This document shows, piece after piece, positions 35,254 to 39,637 of a DNA stretch of 64,000 nt. Numbering within the stretch: position 1 is the first letter of the stretch; every line of letters begins with the position of its first letter. This DNA comes from Acutalibacteraceae bacterium (GTDB taxonomy: Bacteria; Bacillota; Clostridia; Oscillospirales; Acutalibacteraceae), in NCBI GenBank assembly GCA_045534165.1, contig JAZSJD010000032.1:2942-66941 (forward strand), read 5' to 3'. A program made the position numbers and the translations under genes. Below the pieces are notes generated by a model that saw nothing but the letters and a program-made list of their open reading frames with translations, did not search any database and was not told the origin of the DNA.

Positions 35254-35889
35254 ATGGCTAAAGAAAAAAACAAAAACGTTACCAAAAGTATGGTAATGCT
35301 CCTTGTTACAGGCATAACATTGGTAGCGATTACTCTTTGCTGGTTTGCAGTTATGGGCAGAAGTGAAGTTGAGCAGATTAAAAGAGCTCAGGTTAAAAAT
35401 GAATCATCAAAATTCGCCAACATTTATTATGGTGCCGATGAAGATGATAAAATAGCAATAAGGACCGAGGATATTAAAGAGTATATCAAGATTGAAGATA
35501 AAATGATTACTCTTGAAAATATGTTCCCCGGCGCAGAATACACATACATGGCTGAATTTAATAATGCAGAAGCAGGATATAAAATTACACTCGATTTAAA
35601 TGGTATCGAAAACACAACCGGTGACCTTAAATCAAAAGTTAAATTAAACCGCAGAATCACTTTGATGAGTTATAATAGCGGTAATACTGAAACTACAGAT
35701 ACGAATTATAAAACTGTAGCAGATGAGACAACTCTCGACAAAGAAGAAGCTTTAGAATATACAGTTCCTAAAGATGGCAGATACAGAGTTTATTTCTCTT
35801 TTAAAATAGATGAAAAAGTAACAGTTGAAAATGGAAGAAATTTGTCTATGAAGATTGAAAACGTAGACGCAATTATAAGTGGTGCATAA
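35254..35889 (+). CDS. P3: small protein with SipW-cognate-like signal/anchor
   Basis: MAKEKNKNVTKSMVMLLVTGITLVAITLC|WFAVMG. The remainder is beta-rich and ends in RNLSMKIENVDAIISGA. AGAGAGG RBS. The stop overlaps the next gene's start (TAATG at 35887-35891). Confidence 0.6.
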   Translation: MAKEKNKNVTKSMVMLLVTGITLVAITLCWFAVMGRSEVEQIKRAQVKNESSKFANIYYGADEDDKIAIRTEDIKEYIKIEDKMITLENMFPGAEYTYMAEFNNAEAGYKITLDLNGIENTTGDLKSKVKLNRRITLMSYNSGNTETTDTNYKTVADETTLDKEEALEYTVPKDGRYRVYFSFKIDEKVTVENGRNLSMKIENVDAIISGA

Positions 35890-36464
35890 TGAAAATAGTT
35901 AAGAAAATAACATCAATATTAGCAGCAATAATATTTATAATCTGCCTTTTACTTTTGGTGCTCGTAATGATAACTCCCAAAGATGCAACAGGCAATAAAA
36001 GAGTAAATGTGGCAGGATATAGTATAATGAACGTCCTTACAGGCAGTATGGAGCCTAGTTATAATGTAGGTGACGTAATAGTAATTAAGAAAACAAATGC
36101 AGATGAATTAAAAGTCAAAGACGTAATTACATTCATTTCCACAGACAAAAGTTTAAACGGTCAGACAGTAACTCATCGCATTATTGATATAATCGAAGAA
36201 AACGGACAGAAAAAGTTTGAAACAAAAGGCGATAATAACGATATAGCTGACGAAACACTTGTCACAAGCGATAAAATCCTTGGTAAAGTTCAGTTCAGAA
36301 TTCCTTTTGTAGGCAAAGCAGTTAGTTTTATGCAGACTAACAGAGTGGCATTTTTCCTGATTATCATACTTCCTATGCTTGCAATTATGGCATCCGAAGT
36401 TAAAGATATAATTTTAATTGCACGTAGCGGAGACGATGATGAAAGCGAAAAAGATAATACTTAA
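35889..36464 (+). CDS. SPase-2: SipW-like signal peptidase I
   Basis: N-terminal TM helix, LTGSMEPSYNVGDVIVIKK Ser box, VTHRIIDI His box, TKGDNNDIADE box and the C-terminal TM helix VAFFLIIILPMLAIMA. 191 aa, similar in size to B. subtilis SipW. Confidence 0.85.
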   Translation: MKIVKKITSILAAIIFIICLLLLVLVMITPKDATGNKRVNVAGYSIMNVLTGSMEPSYNVGDVIVIKKTNADELKVKDVITFISTDKSLNGQTVTHRIIDIIEENGQKKFETKGDNNDIADETLVTSDKILGKVQFRIPFVGKAVSFMQTNRVAFFLIIILPMLAIMASEVKDIILIARSGDDDESEKDNT

Positions 36465-36939
36465 CATCTTTACATCATTTATAATTCTTTTATCTTTATT
36501 TATTCTTACTATTGGTCTTTTGCCGAAATTCACATCTTACGATGCGTATTATGTAATTTCAGATAGTATGGAGCCCGCAATAAAAAAAGGCGACCTTGTT
36601 TTTACAAAGGAAGTAAAGTTTGAAGAAATTGAAGTAGATGATGTGCTTACTTTCACAAAAGACGGTTCAGAAAGATGGTTTTCTCACAGAGTTGTGAAAA
36701 TAAACGAAGCAGGAAAATCTTTCAGAACAAAAGGTGATAACAATAATGCAGAAGACCCGGGCTATACTTCGTTTGATAATGTAGTGGGCAGGGTGGAAAA
36801 AAAGTTACCACTTGTAGGTTTTGTCCCTATGGCTCTTTCAACAGTGTGGGGAAAAATTACTTTAGTAGTTATCTATATTGTATATATAGCATTTGAGATT
36901 GAAAACTTTCGGCATAAGAAGGAGGGTTCAGAAGCATGA
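36439..36939 (+). CDS. SPase-3: SipW-like signal peptidase I
   Basis: ISDSMEPAIKKGDLVF, FSHRVVKI and TKGDNNNAEDP boxes, with N- and C-terminal TM helices. The start at ATG 36436/36439 overlaps the 3' end of SPase-2 by about 26-29 nt (GGAG upstream). Confidence 0.82.
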   Translation: MKAKKIILNIFTSFIILLSLFILTIGLLPKFTSYDAYYVISDSMEPAIKKGDLVFTKEVKFEEIEVDDVLTFTKDGSERWFSHRVVKINEAGKSFRTKGDNNNAEDPGYTSFDNVVGRVEKKLPLVGFVPMALSTVWGKITLVVIYIVYIAFEIENFRHKKEGSEA

Positions 36940-37721
36940 AAAAGAGAATAATTTGTGTTATACTTTCCCTTGTGGCAGTATTCAGTCTTGTAGGCTTTCA
37001 TGCAACGGAGGCTTGGTTCGGCAGTGGTGAAAACAAAAGTATGCAATTAAGTTCAGGCGACCTTAATTTCACAGCAACAGGCGACCTTACTCTCAAAAAT
37101 AAGAATGCACTTATTCTTCCGGGTGCAGAACTTGAACTTAAACAAGCAATTGTAATTACAAACCTTTCAACAATTGATACAGAACTCCGTGTACGCGTTG
37201 AGTGTACTTATGAAATTGAGGAAGGTGTGACATCACAACCTTTCACTTGGATTGAGTTTGTAAACGATGACGATAGCAAATGGTATGCAGATCCCGAAGA
37301 CGGTTGCATTTACTACACTCCGAAAGCTGTTCCTGGTGATGACAGACGAATCCCCGGAGTTGATATTGAAGTAACAGAAACTACAACTGTTGCTGAAACA
37401 ACAACAGAGGCTGAAACAGAAGCAGGCGAAACAACAACCGATGGCGGTGCAGAGGCAGACGATGAAGTAACAGAAATTACAACTGAAACTACAACTGAAA
37501 CCACAACAAGAGTTTATGCTGATAATGAAATTCCTCTTGCAGGTACAATTATAATCAGCGGTGATGTGCCTTATGAATTACAGGGTAAAGCACTGAAACT
37601 TAATTTTATTATCGAAGCAAAACAGGCAGATTTTATGAAATGGGAAAACTTTAATAATCCCAATGGTATGCCAACAACCGTTCCAACAACTGTTCCAGCA
37701 AGCGAAGAGACAAGCGAATGA
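36936..37721 (+). CDS. P4: TasA/camelysin-like secreted protein with SipW-cognate-type signal peptide
   Basis: MKKRIICVILSLVAVFSLVGFHATEA|WFGSGENKSMQLSSGDLNF follows the AxF-S/G..E....aG.L pattern of TasA/CalY N-termini. The C-terminal strand QGKALKLNFIIEAKQ is camelysin-like. There is an internal T/E-rich insert (ETTTVAETTTEAETEAGETTTD...). ATGA overlaps occur at both ends. Confidence 0.72.
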   Translation: MKKRIICVILSLVAVFSLVGFHATEAWFGSGENKSMQLSSGDLNFTATGDLTLKNKNALILPGAELELKQAIVITNLSTIDTELRVRVECTYEIEEGVTSQPFTWIEFVNDDDSKWYADPEDGCIYYTPKAVPGDDRRIPGVDIEVTETTTVAETTTEAETEAGETTTDGGAEADDEVTEITTETTTETTTRVYADNEIPLAGTIIISGDVPYELQGKALKLNFIIEAKQADFMKWENFNNPNGMPTTVPTTVPASEETSE

Positions 37722-38245: not shown

Positions 38246-38996
38246 ATATGTAGCTTTAGTTGCATCTTTAATTCTTGTAATTGCATATTTCAGCCTTCTT
38301 TCACCTACAAGTGCATATTTTTATAAAACACAGTCTTCGGAGACAACAATTAAGTTTGCAACATTTGATGTTGAGGAGACCATTTTTGAAAACAAAGATG
38401 TTCTCGAATTCAAGGGCGCAACAAAACTTTGCGATACAGAGGAACTTCTCTTTGATGATGTTGCAATTGTAAAAGAAATAACAGTTGAAAACCAGGGTGA
38501 AGCACCTGCCAGAATTTTAACTCACATCACACCAACAGATGAAGCAGTTACAAATGGTTTCAGATATGTTGCTTTTATTGAAAAAATAACAAATGAAACT
38601 GAAACAGTAGCAGAGGGCGAGGAAGAAACAACAGTTGCAGTTGTTTCCAAAGGTGCAATAAAAACAGAACTTGAAACATTTTTTGAAATTAAAGATGATT
38701 CAACTCACGAAGATATCCAAGCAGCGCTTAATGAATATAACGAGAAATTCAGAGAGAATGATGATACACTTCTTGAACCCGGCAAAAGTGCAAAAGTAAG
38801 AATTATTTTCTGGGTTGAATATGACCCTGCACAGGTTGCAGCAGGTGGCGAAAGTAAATGGCAGAATGCAGGAGAAATTGTAAACATTGAATATCCCTGC
38901 AAAATCGAAATTATCGCATCTCAGGATAACGATGAGGCAGTAAGTTCAATTTTTGAAACAACAACAGCGGAAACAACATCAGAAGAACAACAGTAA
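38217..38996 (+). CDS. P5: TasA/camelysin-like secreted protein with SipW-cognate-type signal peptide
   Basis: MSTAKKRTVKYVALVASLILVIAYFSLLSPTSA|YFYKTQSSETTIKFATFDV. C-terminal strand YPCKIEIIASQ and a T/E-rich tail. GAGAGGTGA RBS before ATG 38217; the ORF-track TTG start at 38175 is less likely. It overlaps the SPase-4 3' end by 29 nt. Confidence 0.7.
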   Translation: MSTAKKRTVKYVALVASLILVIAYFSLLSPTSAYFYKTQSSETTIKFATFDVEETIFENKDVLEFKGATKLCDTEELLFDDVAIVKEITVENQGEAPARILTHITPTDEAVTNGFRYVAFIEKITNETETVAEGEEETTVAVVSKGAIKTELETFFEIKDDSTHEDIQAALNEYNEKFRENDDTLLEPGKSAKVRIIFWVEYDPAQVAAGGESKWQNAGEIVNIEYPCKIEIIASQDNDEAVSSIFETTTAETTSEEQQ

Positions 38997-39013
38997 GAGA
39001 GCGTGGTGTCAGT

Positions 39014-39637
39014 ATGAAGAAAAAATTTATGGAAAACAAAAAGTTCAGACTGATGGCGATATTGCTGATTACTGTTTTTATCGTAACAAGCTTTTCTTTT
39101 GCATGGTTTATTATGCGTACAACAGATGTCCTTCAGCAGTTTTCACTTGCAAACTTCCAGGCTGAGCCTGATTGTTATTTTATTAATGGCGAAAACGAAG
39201 TAGCCCCCTCTGAAATTGATGGTGCAACAGACGGAAAATTAATTGTTCTCAGCACTGATCCCGAAGCTCAAAATTACATTGGCAATTTCTGTGTTGATGT
39301 AAAATACAAAGGCGATGGTGCAGGTTACCTCAGAGTTAAAATGGTTCACGAATATTCAATTGAAGGCAATTCAACTCAGCACCCTGCAAATGTGCCATAT
39401 ACTGTATCAGGCGATTGGTATGATAACCGTGGTAACGATTTCTGTTATTACTACAAAAATGAACTTGATGCAGACGGTGATGAAGAAAAGACACTTAATT
39501 TTATTACATTGAACAACGATATAAATTTAGGTGAACTGGCAGACGGCATTGTAATCAAAGTCGCAGTTGAAACCGATATGGTGCAGATTAACAGATATCC
39601 GCAGATTTGGGGAATCGACAATCTTCCTTGGAAATAA
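39014..39637 (+). CDS. P6: small secreted protein with SipW-cognate-type signal peptide
   Basis: MKKKFMENKKFRLMAILLITVFIVTSFSFA|WFIMRTTDVLQQFSLANF. The body is beta-rich, with the C-terminal strand IVIKVAVETDMVQ. Confidence 0.65.
   Translation: MKKKFMENKKFRLMAILLITVFIVTSFSFAWFIMRTTDVLQQFSLANFQAEPDCYFINGENEVAPSEIDGATDGKLIVLSTDPEAQNYIGNFCVDVKYKGDGAGYLRVKMVHEYSIEGNSTQHPANVPYTVSGDWYDNRGNDFCYYYKNELDADGDEEKTLNFITLNNDINLGELADGIVIKVAVETDMVQINRYPQIWGIDNLPWK

Follow-up and report, generated by a model that had tools for sequence, protein, structure and literature searches.

The window analyzed here is a 64,000-nucleotide stretch of DNA from an Acutalibacteraceae bacterium (GenBank assembly GCA_045534165.1, contig JAZSJD010000032.1, positions 2,942 to 66,941 of the forward strand). 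Positions 35254-39637 of the window encode an array of seven plus-strand open reading frames (ORFs) in the order P3-SPase-2-SPase-3-P4-SPase-4-P5-P6, in which three SipW-like signal peptidases are interleaved with four putative secreted proteins. We consider it reasonably likely that this array is a sortase-independent module for an extracellular fiber or matrix of the TasA/BsaA type that consists of several subunits and partly specialized SipW-like peptidases. Array homologs with names and recovered genome loci come from metagenome-assembled genomes (MAGs) of uncultured Acutalibacteraceae, Oscillospiraceae, and 'Ruminococcaceae', some of them sampled from deer rectum, and the host is an uncultured ruminant-gut Clostridia bacterium.

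The gene junctions were checked on the DNA and on the ORF list. A preliminary description of this DNA had listed overlapping junctions, three SipW-like ORFs, and four cleavage motifs, and every one of these was recovered at its position. The P3 stop and the SPase-2 start share a TAATG (35887-35891). The SPase-2 stop codon (36462-36464) lies inside SPase-3, which starts at an ATG at 36436 (or 36439) preceded by GGAG, giving an overlap of 29 or 26 nt. ATGA junctions join SPase-3 to P4 (36936-36939) and P4 to SPase-4 (37718-37721). The P5 ATG (38217) precedes the SPase-4 stop (38243-38245) and creates another 29-nt overlap, with the ribosome-binding site GAGAGGTG upstream of the ATG, and P5 and P6 are spaced by 17 nt. 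The tight packing fits the translational coupling suggested earlier, and the seven genes are probably one tightly packed, translationally coupled operon module. An imperfect hairpin just 3' of P6 (AATGGGCCGAG-CAGA-CTCGGTCCATT) is a possible operon end; the terminator scan did not call it, as it has no 5-T tail. The same scan found the inverted repeat between P3 and the large gene upstream to be terminator-like on the minus strand, with no T tail on the plus strand.

The array was compared with 13 related loci from other genomes, whose proteins are 40-80% identical, so that each paralog family holds 14 sequences (SP2, SP3, and SP4 for the peptidases). The gene order giant-P3-SP2-SP3-P4-SP4-P5-P6, where giant is the large upstream gene, is identical in all 13. 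The SP2/SP3 overlap (20-35 nt) is likewise kept in 13/13, whereas SP4 and P5 overlap by 29 nt in all relatives but one, which has 20 nt (12/13 and 1/13). Each cleavage-region motif is invariant or near-invariant inside its P family. This arrangement is far beyond chance.

The peptidases were scored against TIGR02228, the model for endoplasmic reticulum (ER)/archaeal-type signal peptidase I (MEROPS S26B), which has a curated cut-off of 51.85 bits. SPase-2 (113.9 bits), SPase-3 (106.1 bits), SPase-4 (70.0 bits), and a fourth paralog encoded upstream of the array, SPase-1 (80.9 bits), all exceed this value, and SPase-4 scores 40.5 bits against Peptidase_S26. The Bacillus SipW equivalog NF046067 has a cut-off of 190 bits; the best score is 122.6 bits (SPase-2), and the others score 45-79. 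Because the first cut-off is exceeded and the second is missed, the peptidases are classified from their sequences as SipW-like and not as Bacillus SipW orthologs by the NCBI criterion. The TIGR02228 scores and the N-termini of the neighboring ORFs bear out the initial view that ER/SipW-type signal peptidases are interleaved with secreted proteins. All four paralogs of the window contain the S-M-x-P, [TS]-H-R, and G-D boxes and a downstream Asp. The catalytic sets are Ser53, His96, Asp115, and Asp121 in SPase-2, Ser44, His84, Asp101, and Asp107 in SPase-3, and Ser40, His81, Asp98, and Asp104 in SPase-4. The Ser, His, and Asp of the four paralogs correspond to SipW Ser47, His87, and Asp106, which are reported to be essential (Tjalsma 2000, cited in PMC8767453), and specify a Ser-His arrangement, not the Ser-Lys dyad of the P-type enzymes. 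The Ser, the His, and both Asp residues are at least 90% conserved in each of the three array families.

Non-proteolytic roles for some paralogs had been raised in the preliminary description along with the claim that the SMQP and GDK boxes of SPase-4 are divergent. A paralog acting mainly without proteolysis could be a scaffold, chaperone, assembly platform, or cytoplasmic-tail signaling protein. The two boxes are ordinary variation: in all three ortholog groups the residue after Ser-Met varies freely (E, D, T, S, Y, I, Q, N, K, or A), and both GDK and GDN occur among the SPase-4 orthologs. The catalytic Ser and His are kept by the array orthologs, and the sole departure, which affects the Asp, is the SP2 of one relative (L001), which reads THS and GINS. 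The sole peptidases of several homologous arrays that contain a single SipW read GI or GK at the GD box, and since these lack the GD Asp as well, its loss is not evidence of inactivation. Neither SMQP/GDK nor the GINS of L001 was retained as a mark of inactivity. A peptidase-independent function of B. subtilis SipW is reported to need its C-terminal 20 residues (Terra et al. 2012, as given in PMC8767453), and the paralogs do have distinct conserved tails, which are acidic in SP2, basic in SP3, KNKTRGDKNEH in SP4, and extended by about 100 acidic residues in SP1. However, the tail conservation of SP2 and SP4 is confounded by the overlap with the ribosome-binding site and start of the next gene, and Ser and His are present in 34/34 SipW-like ORFs inspected in a wider survey. 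The sequences carry no sign of an inactivated copy and do not support a loss of proteolytic activity in any paralog, which makes a mainly non-proteolytic role very unlikely. A tail-mediated second function like that of B. subtilis SipW stays conceivable by analogy.

The wider survey combined a degenerate DNA scan for the P4-type motif AKQADYVxW in metagenome contigs with three look-ups of distant P4 homologs. It yielded 19 further loci that were annotated with local hidden Markov models. Three-SipW arrays with unchanged order were found in five of them (L014, L023, L025, L030, and L031), two-SipW arrays in L017 (= L026), L019, L024, L027, and L032, and one-SipW arrays in L015, L018, L022, L028, and L029. 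L021 has one SipW in the array and two more elsewhere on the contig. The core is constant across the arrays and consists of a P4-like protein, a SipW, a protein in the P5 position, and a P6-like protein. Large ORFs with an F-x-G-x-FDG-x-G-x-x-I-x-N module adjoin the arrays either upstream or downstream. A single peptidase suffices in the simpler versions of the system, because one-SipW arrays exist. L015 (logan SRR19415682 contig, 84-9306) is from a distant organism and represents a minimal version, with two TasA-like genes (SSYA↓WL and TTLA↓WL, the arrow marking the predicted cut), one SipW-like gene, and one P6-like gene. Its giant protein exceeds 2,200 residues, contains the FTGSFDGNGFKIKN module, and is encoded downstream of the array instead of upstream.

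The phylogeny proposed in the preliminary description was built by neighbor joining without bootstrap, and each paralog formed its own clade. Identity is 25-30% between paralogs and about 70% inside each orthologous group, and these values together with the separate clades indicate that purifying selection has acted on each copy over a long time. Just 10 alignment columns combine conservation inside every paralog family with a difference between the families. In the neighbor-joining tree, the peptidase of the one-SipW arrays groups with the SP4 clade or close to it, as does the second SipW of the two-SipW arrays. The first SipW of the two-SipW arrays L017 and L027 joins the SP2 clade, and the SP3 clade is on the SP4-containing side. 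The SPase-4 lineage appears to be ancestral to the array, and the tree positions of the one- and two-SipW peptidases suggest that peptidases were added stepwise to an ancestral one-peptidase array.

A strict one-to-one specificity, also proposed at the outset, would have each SipW cleave one cognate neighbor only, for example SP4 acting on P5 and SP3 on P4. Every P family has its own invariant motif in the cleavage region (TLC↓WF, AT.A↓WF, PTSA↓YF, and SFA↓WF), the peptidase paralogs are conserved separately, and SP4 has A96 and T100 beside the GD box where SP2 and SP3 have K and N. An exploratory correlation of distance matrices from 13 taxa was strongest for SP4 and P5 (r 0.86, residual 0.75). 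However, SP2 and SP3 correlate with each other (r 0.65) and have no substrate partner, and the SP4-P5 correlation is equally explained by physical linkage. The correlation is ambiguous between coevolution and linkage because it covers 13 taxa and because the topologies of SP2/SP3 and of the P4-P6 block differ. All of the motifs also follow a single T/S(-3), A/C(-1) rule. The ratio of putative substrates to peptidases is 4:3 in the array and 5-6:4 in the whole locus, and one or two SipW genes serve three to four such proteins in homologous arrays. With unequal numbers and arrays of one or two SipW, the system can do without strict pairing, which would at most be a derived specialization. The one-to-one proposal is somewhat weakened by these data, and we regard it as quite unlikely.

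The opposite explanation is that all paralogs cleave all substrates, with the copies only raising or balancing the peptidase capacity of a strongly expressed fiber operon and the interleaving setting the stoichiometry through translational coupling. The paralogs share the same catalytic set with few family-specific positions, the substrates present one motif class, one-SipW arrays exist, and the P-type signal peptidases of B. subtilis are a precedent for overlapping specificity (PMC8767453). Purely redundant copies would be expected to decay or vanish, whereas three position-specific clades persist in 13 genomes and in distant three-SipW contigs, and the gene order is invariant within the three-SipW group. 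Redundancy of this kind is somewhat unlikely. Because it is hard to square with three long-kept, position-specific clades, the three peptidases are most likely partly specialized with overlapping specificity.

The N-termini of P3 to P6 consist of a Lys-rich stretch and a hydrophobic segment that ends in the predicted cleavage motif, which is ITLC↓WF in P3, ATEA↓WF in P4, PTSA↓YF in P5, and SFA↓WF in P6. The TLCWF sequence is invariant in 13 P3 orthologs. Searches found 46 homologs of P4 and 43 of P5 that are nameless or labeled 'hypothetical protein', those of P5 in MAGs labeled Ruminococcaceae/Clostridia. A P4 family profile searched against 1.84 billion representatives retrieved 274 proteins at E<=1e-3, of which 70 reached E<=1e-10. 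Among the best 147 of the 274, there were 42 matches to PF12389 (Peptidase_M73, the TasA/camelysin family), 27 to TIGR04088 (SipW-dependent-type signal peptide), 10 to TasA NF046066, and seven to BsaA TIGR04090. The consensus of this superfamily contains T-x-A-W-[FL], PG, N-x-S-x-[IV]-x-[ST]-x-[LV]-R, and a C-terminal [FV]-[QE]-[AS]-K-Q-A-x-[YF]-V-x-W. The two top matches of the superfamily profile among Protein Data Bank (PDB) sequences were TasA entries 5OF1 and 8AUR, aligned over their full length at an E of only 0.2. The profile alignment sets residue 2 of mature TasA on Phe28 of P4 and TasA FEATQ on P4 EAKQA. The T(-3)-x-A(-1)↓aromatic-Phe register of the P4 superfamily thus coincides with the mature N-terminus of TasA, which agrees with the earlier suggestion that the substrates' N-termini resemble the SipW-cognate class.

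Most early hhalign links between the P families were driven by the signal peptides. The comparisons were redone on the mature parts because signal peptides alone can give spurious profile matches, and the early P2, P3, and P5 links vanished once the signal peptide was removed. The mature domain of P4 matches the TasA-like set at 99.9% probability, and profile comparison makes P4 a solid, if divergent, member of the TasA/camelysin/BsaA superfamily. P6 reached 96.7% over 156 columns with its signal peptide. Its mature part reached 75% directly and 98.3% then 96.1% through bridge proteins of other arrays, and P6 matched P4 at 88.6%. P6 is a probable member of the TasA superfamily by these comparisons. 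The mature part of P3 gave <1% directly and 92.7% to bridge proteins that themselves reach only 38% to the TasA-like set; for P5 the values were <2% directly and 82% then 15% by way of bridge proteins. P3 and P5 thus appear at the profile level to share only the signal-peptide class with the TasA-like set. AlphaFold 2 models of modest quality are mainly beta-sandwich for both P5 (predicted local distance difference test (pLDDT) score 72, with additional helices) and P4 (pLDDT 63). Residues 29-41 of the P5 model, 13 residues that span and follow the predicted cleavage site, have pLDDT <50, a disordered segment that is weakly suggestive of a free donor strand. No relevant match came from PDB sequence searches with P2, the P5 profile, or the P4 profile.

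Low-complexity linkers rich in Thr and Glu are present in P4 (37350-37500), in P5 (38590-38640 and 38960-38993), and in the N-terminus of the giant protein (18440-18650). These linkers differ greatly in length from ortholog to ortholog, and some orthologs lack the one in P4. A role as O-glycosylated spacers is possible.

In SipW, TasA and TapA have a peptidase dedicated to them (PMC9245690; PMC8767453), and TasA and BsaA are reported to polymerize by donor-strand exchange (PMC9674648; PMC11580942). Some operons are known to combine a signal peptidase with more than one BsaA/TasA paralog, and heteropolymers have been proposed as their products (PMC11580942). By analogy, P3 to P6 would be exported by Sec and held at the membrane through their SipW-class signal peptides. 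The coexpressed SPase-2, SPase-3, and SPase-4 would cut after T-x-[A/C] and free an aromatic-Phe N-terminus, which would serve as the donor strand that enters the next subunit. P4, and probably P6, would be the TasA-like building blocks. P3 and P5 would be accessory subunits, possibly an adaptor, an initiator, or an anchor. The resulting fiber would be functionally tied to the GLUG surface protein encoded upstream and to the membrane protein encoded downstream of the array. The division of labor between the peptidases would resemble that of the several pilin-specific sortases in one pilus islet. The sequences themselves show the conserved gene architecture, the family and catalytic residues of the peptidases, and the superfamily membership of P4, whereas the cleavage site, the donor-strand heteropolymer, the tie to the giant protein, and the peptidases' division of labor are inferred.

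Table 1. Positions of the array genes and of the neighboring features in the window.
Feature	Position	Strand	Description
P3	35254..35889	+	211-aa secreted protein; N-terminal signal/anchor segment ending TLC↓WF
SPase-2	35889..36464	+	191 aa; ER/SipW-type signal peptidase I; N- and C-terminal membrane segments
SPase-3	36436..36939	+	167 aa; ER/SipW-type signal peptidase I
P4	36936..37721	+	261 aa; AT[EQK][AT]↓WF; variable Thr/Glu-rich insert; C-terminal EAKQADF.W
SPase-4	37718..38245	+	175 aa; ER/SipW-type signal peptidase I
P5	38217..38996	+	259-aa secreted protein; highly conserved N-terminus MSTAKK...YFSLLSPTSA↓YFYK
P6	39014..39637	+	207 aa; [SL][FL]A↓WF; conserved C-terminal NRYPQ[IV]WG.D.LPW
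Imperfect hairpin	39647..39672	+	just 3' of P6; seen by eye
Inverted repeat	35187..35216		12 bp, GC-rich; between giant gene and P3
Giant protein	18353..35167	+	GLUG/M26_N-type secreted protein, 5,604 aa; directly upstream of array; Pfam Peptidase_M26_N 4.3e-10, Glug
547-aa protein	39693..41336	+	Lys/Glu/Pro-rich N-terminal region; one membrane segment; conserved ~190-aa C-terminal domain
EAL protein	10291-11175	+	EAL 1.4e-44; directly upstream of P1
P1	11198-12079	+	293 aa; ...ITYA↓KQ
P2	12209-13039	+	276 aa; SATYA↓WF
SPase-1	13328-14290	+	SipW-like; ~100 acidic residues in C-terminal tail
AAA ATPase	14352-15902	+	membrane AAA_5/McrB-like ATPase; between SPase-1 and coiled-coil gene
Coiled-coil protein	15956-18169	+	737 aa; long Lys/Glu coiled coil; precedes giant gene

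The array is the downstream half of a locus of about 30 kb (Table 1). The order EAL-P1-P2-SipW-AAA-coiled coil-giant is shared with two other loci, L033 and the more distant L034. Because this upstream order is also kept, the conserved unit is a ~30-kb, 15-gene locus. The ATPase and coiled-coil pair seems to be part of it and not an inserted defense island, since the pair is syntenic in L033 and L034. The ATPase has a weak match to McrB (E 5e-5) and one to the PADLOC candidate PDC-M26A at 1.4e-35. The EAL gene, encoding a cyclic di-GMP (c-di-GMP) phosphodiesterase, has the same position in L033 and L034, which suggests that the locus is under c-di-GMP control. The P2 family has at least 191 homologs and is much wider than that of P4 or P5. 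P2 could be the major subunit; its mature part gave no profile link to the TasA-like set by hhalign. Downstream of the array, the 547-residue protein matches no Pfam or NCBIfam family and is a candidate membrane anchor for the fiber. A homolog of it usually follows the array in the 13 relatives. Its C-terminal domain is encoded downstream in L001, L002, L005, L010, L011, L013, L014, L023, L025, and L026, and its N-terminal half contains tandem, near-identical ETVETVEETAEPE repeats. Farther downstream, the minus strand (42910-45980) encodes a radical-SAM/SPASM protein (anaerobic sulfatase-maturase-like) beside a membrane-anchored sulfatase. The pair is also found downstream of the locus in L002 and is apparently unrelated to the array.

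The giant protein has a standard Sec signal peptide, and the domain scan found no recognizable wall anchor in it. Its gene is upstream of the array in 13/13 relatives and in L014, L030, and L031, and a similar large ORF is downstream of the array in L015, L022, and L028. The C-terminus of the giant protein (35129-35167) reads [DE][RK]PWG[VL].S...L[W] and is kept even in the distant contigs L014, L030, and L031. It resembles the C-terminus of P6 (39590-39637, NRYPQIWG.D.LPW) and that of a 233-residue protein of L015. Judged by this similarity, the PWG-type motif may be a shared docking or sorting signal. The idea that the giant C-terminus contains a TasA-like acceptor domain was rejected, as the last 420 residues gave <3% probability by hhalign.

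The giant protein also suggests another role for the P proteins. They could be dedicated to its export and display, as an anchor, a stalk, a chaperone, or an adaptor that spans the wall, with the SipW copies only maturing them. A giant GLUG-type ORF on either side is the most constant neighbor of the array, its C-terminal motif resembles that of P6, it has no recognizable anchor of its own, and P3 and P5 are not demonstrably TasA-like. However, P4 clearly groups with a superfamily whose characterized members polymerize, and the giant C-terminus contains no detectable TasA-like acceptor domain. An accessory role is also compatible with a fiber, since a fiber can double as an anchor. As a replacement for the multisubunit fiber or matrix module, we consider it unlikely.

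Several observations weigh against the assignment to a TasA/BsaA-type module. None of P3 to P6 has a significant direct match to PF12389, TIGR04088, TasA, or BsaA or to any other family in Pfam or NCBIfam, and P3 and P5 are left without a family assignment. P1 to P6 gave no match at E<=0.1 to either PF12389 or TIGR04088, P5 scored 14 bits (E 0.029) against TapA TIGR04087 (cut-off 80 bits), and P6 scored 18.5 bits (E 0.0013), a weak hint, against BsaA TIGR04090 (cut-off 60 bits). The P4 superfamily profile reaches TasA in the PDB only at the E of 0.2 given above. Neither P3 nor P5 could be shown, by direct or bridged hhalign comparison of the mature parts, to be homologous to the TasA-like set. 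Foldseek searches of the PDB with the modest-quality models had no TasA among the 50 matches listed, with a best E of 0.13 for P5 and 0.028 for P4; the CUB-type and p53-type beta-sandwiches that headed the matches were non-significant and were treated as noise. The physical link between the giant protein and the array is purely contextual, given that the C-terminal 420 residues of the giant protein show no TasA-like acceptor domain. The 10 family-specific columns are a thin signature for diverged peptidase specificity. Finally, all member sequences are from uncultured organisms, and the system is known here from genes alone.

A more far-reaching possibility is that the SipW paralogs are subunit-specific gatekeepers that order the entry of P3 to P6 into one heteropolymeric donor-strand fiber, which bears or anchors the GLUG adhesin through the PWG motif. 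The signal peptide would keep each subunit tethered until the peptidase dedicated to that subunit releases it. We consider this improbable. If true, sortase-driven pilus assembly would have a counterpart that is driven by signal peptidases, and the steps in the evolution of that counterpart would be preserved in the one-, two-, and three-SipW arrays.

The closest known relative of the array is found in operons that pair SipW with TasA-like proteins. As in tapA-sipW-tasA of B. subtilis, which encodes the TasA fiber and its initiator/anchor TapA, an ER-type peptidase gene lies inside the operon that encodes its substrates. Further similarities are a signal-peptide class with T(-3)-x-A(-1) ahead of an aromatic-Phe N-terminus in the mature protein, the full-length alignment of TasA and P4 in motif register, and a major subunit with accessory secreted proteins. 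The B. subtilis operon has one peptidase and two substrates, whereas three peptidases (four in the locus) accompany four to six putative substrates here. The present proteins also miss the Pfam/NCBIfam thresholds for TasA, TapA, and Bacillus SipW, and the giant GLUG protein, the AAA ATPase, and the EAL protein set the locus apart from that operon. The C. perfringens sipW-bsaA-bsaB-bsaC operon (Obana 2020, PMC7395162; Kivimaki et al., preprint, PMC11580942) is also from Clostridia and likewise combines SipW with several TasA-like paralogs, and the seven remote P4 homologs that match the BsaA model provide a link to it. In contrast to the array, it has one SipW, with no interleaving of several peptidases described. 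The partner protein differs as well, being the vWA protein BsaC in that operon and a 5,604-residue GLUG protein here. The archaeal bundling pili AbpA/AbpB (PMC9245690) share TasA-like subunits, donor-strand complementation, a TapA-like partner, and a multigene operon. That operon has no dedicated peptidase, and a generic signal peptidase is credited (PMC9245690), whereas the dedicated peptidase is multiplied here.

The interleaving itself has a parallel outside this superfamily. The sortase pilus islets, such as rlrA of Streptococcus pneumoniae and spa of Corynebacterium diphtheriae, contain several pilin-specific class C sortases interleaved with pilin genes. In both cases paralogous membrane processing enzymes with partly overlapping preference are encoded among the subunit genes of one fiber. 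The enzymes belong to unrelated families, a Cys transpeptidase in the islets and a Ser/His signal peptidase here. LPXTG is absent from the subunits of the array, and their polymerization would be by noncovalent strand exchange, not by transpeptidation.

No account of multi-SipW arrays or of a TasA-GLUG(-AAA) association turned up in the literature searches. What is new here is the multiplication of the peptidases and their fixed interleaving, and the array elaborates on an operon type that is already known without amounting to a new kind of system. Among Gram-positive bacteria and archaea, SipW/TasA-type fibers are one of the main ways to form surface filaments and biofilm matrix without sortases. 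The need for a dedicated ER-type signal peptidase and the source of its substrate specificity are poorly understood. A locus with multiplied, long-kept peptidases, three in the array and four in the locus with relatives that have one or two, is a natural comparative system for SipW specificity and is also useful for the study of heteropolymeric TasA-like fibers. In this locus, TasA-like proteins are associated with a giant GLUG protein, an AAA ATPase, and a c-di-GMP phosphodiesterase. Its carriers are abundant, uncultured Clostridia of the ruminant gut, and the association suggests that these bacteria have a large apparatus for adhesion or matrix formation that has gone unstudied.

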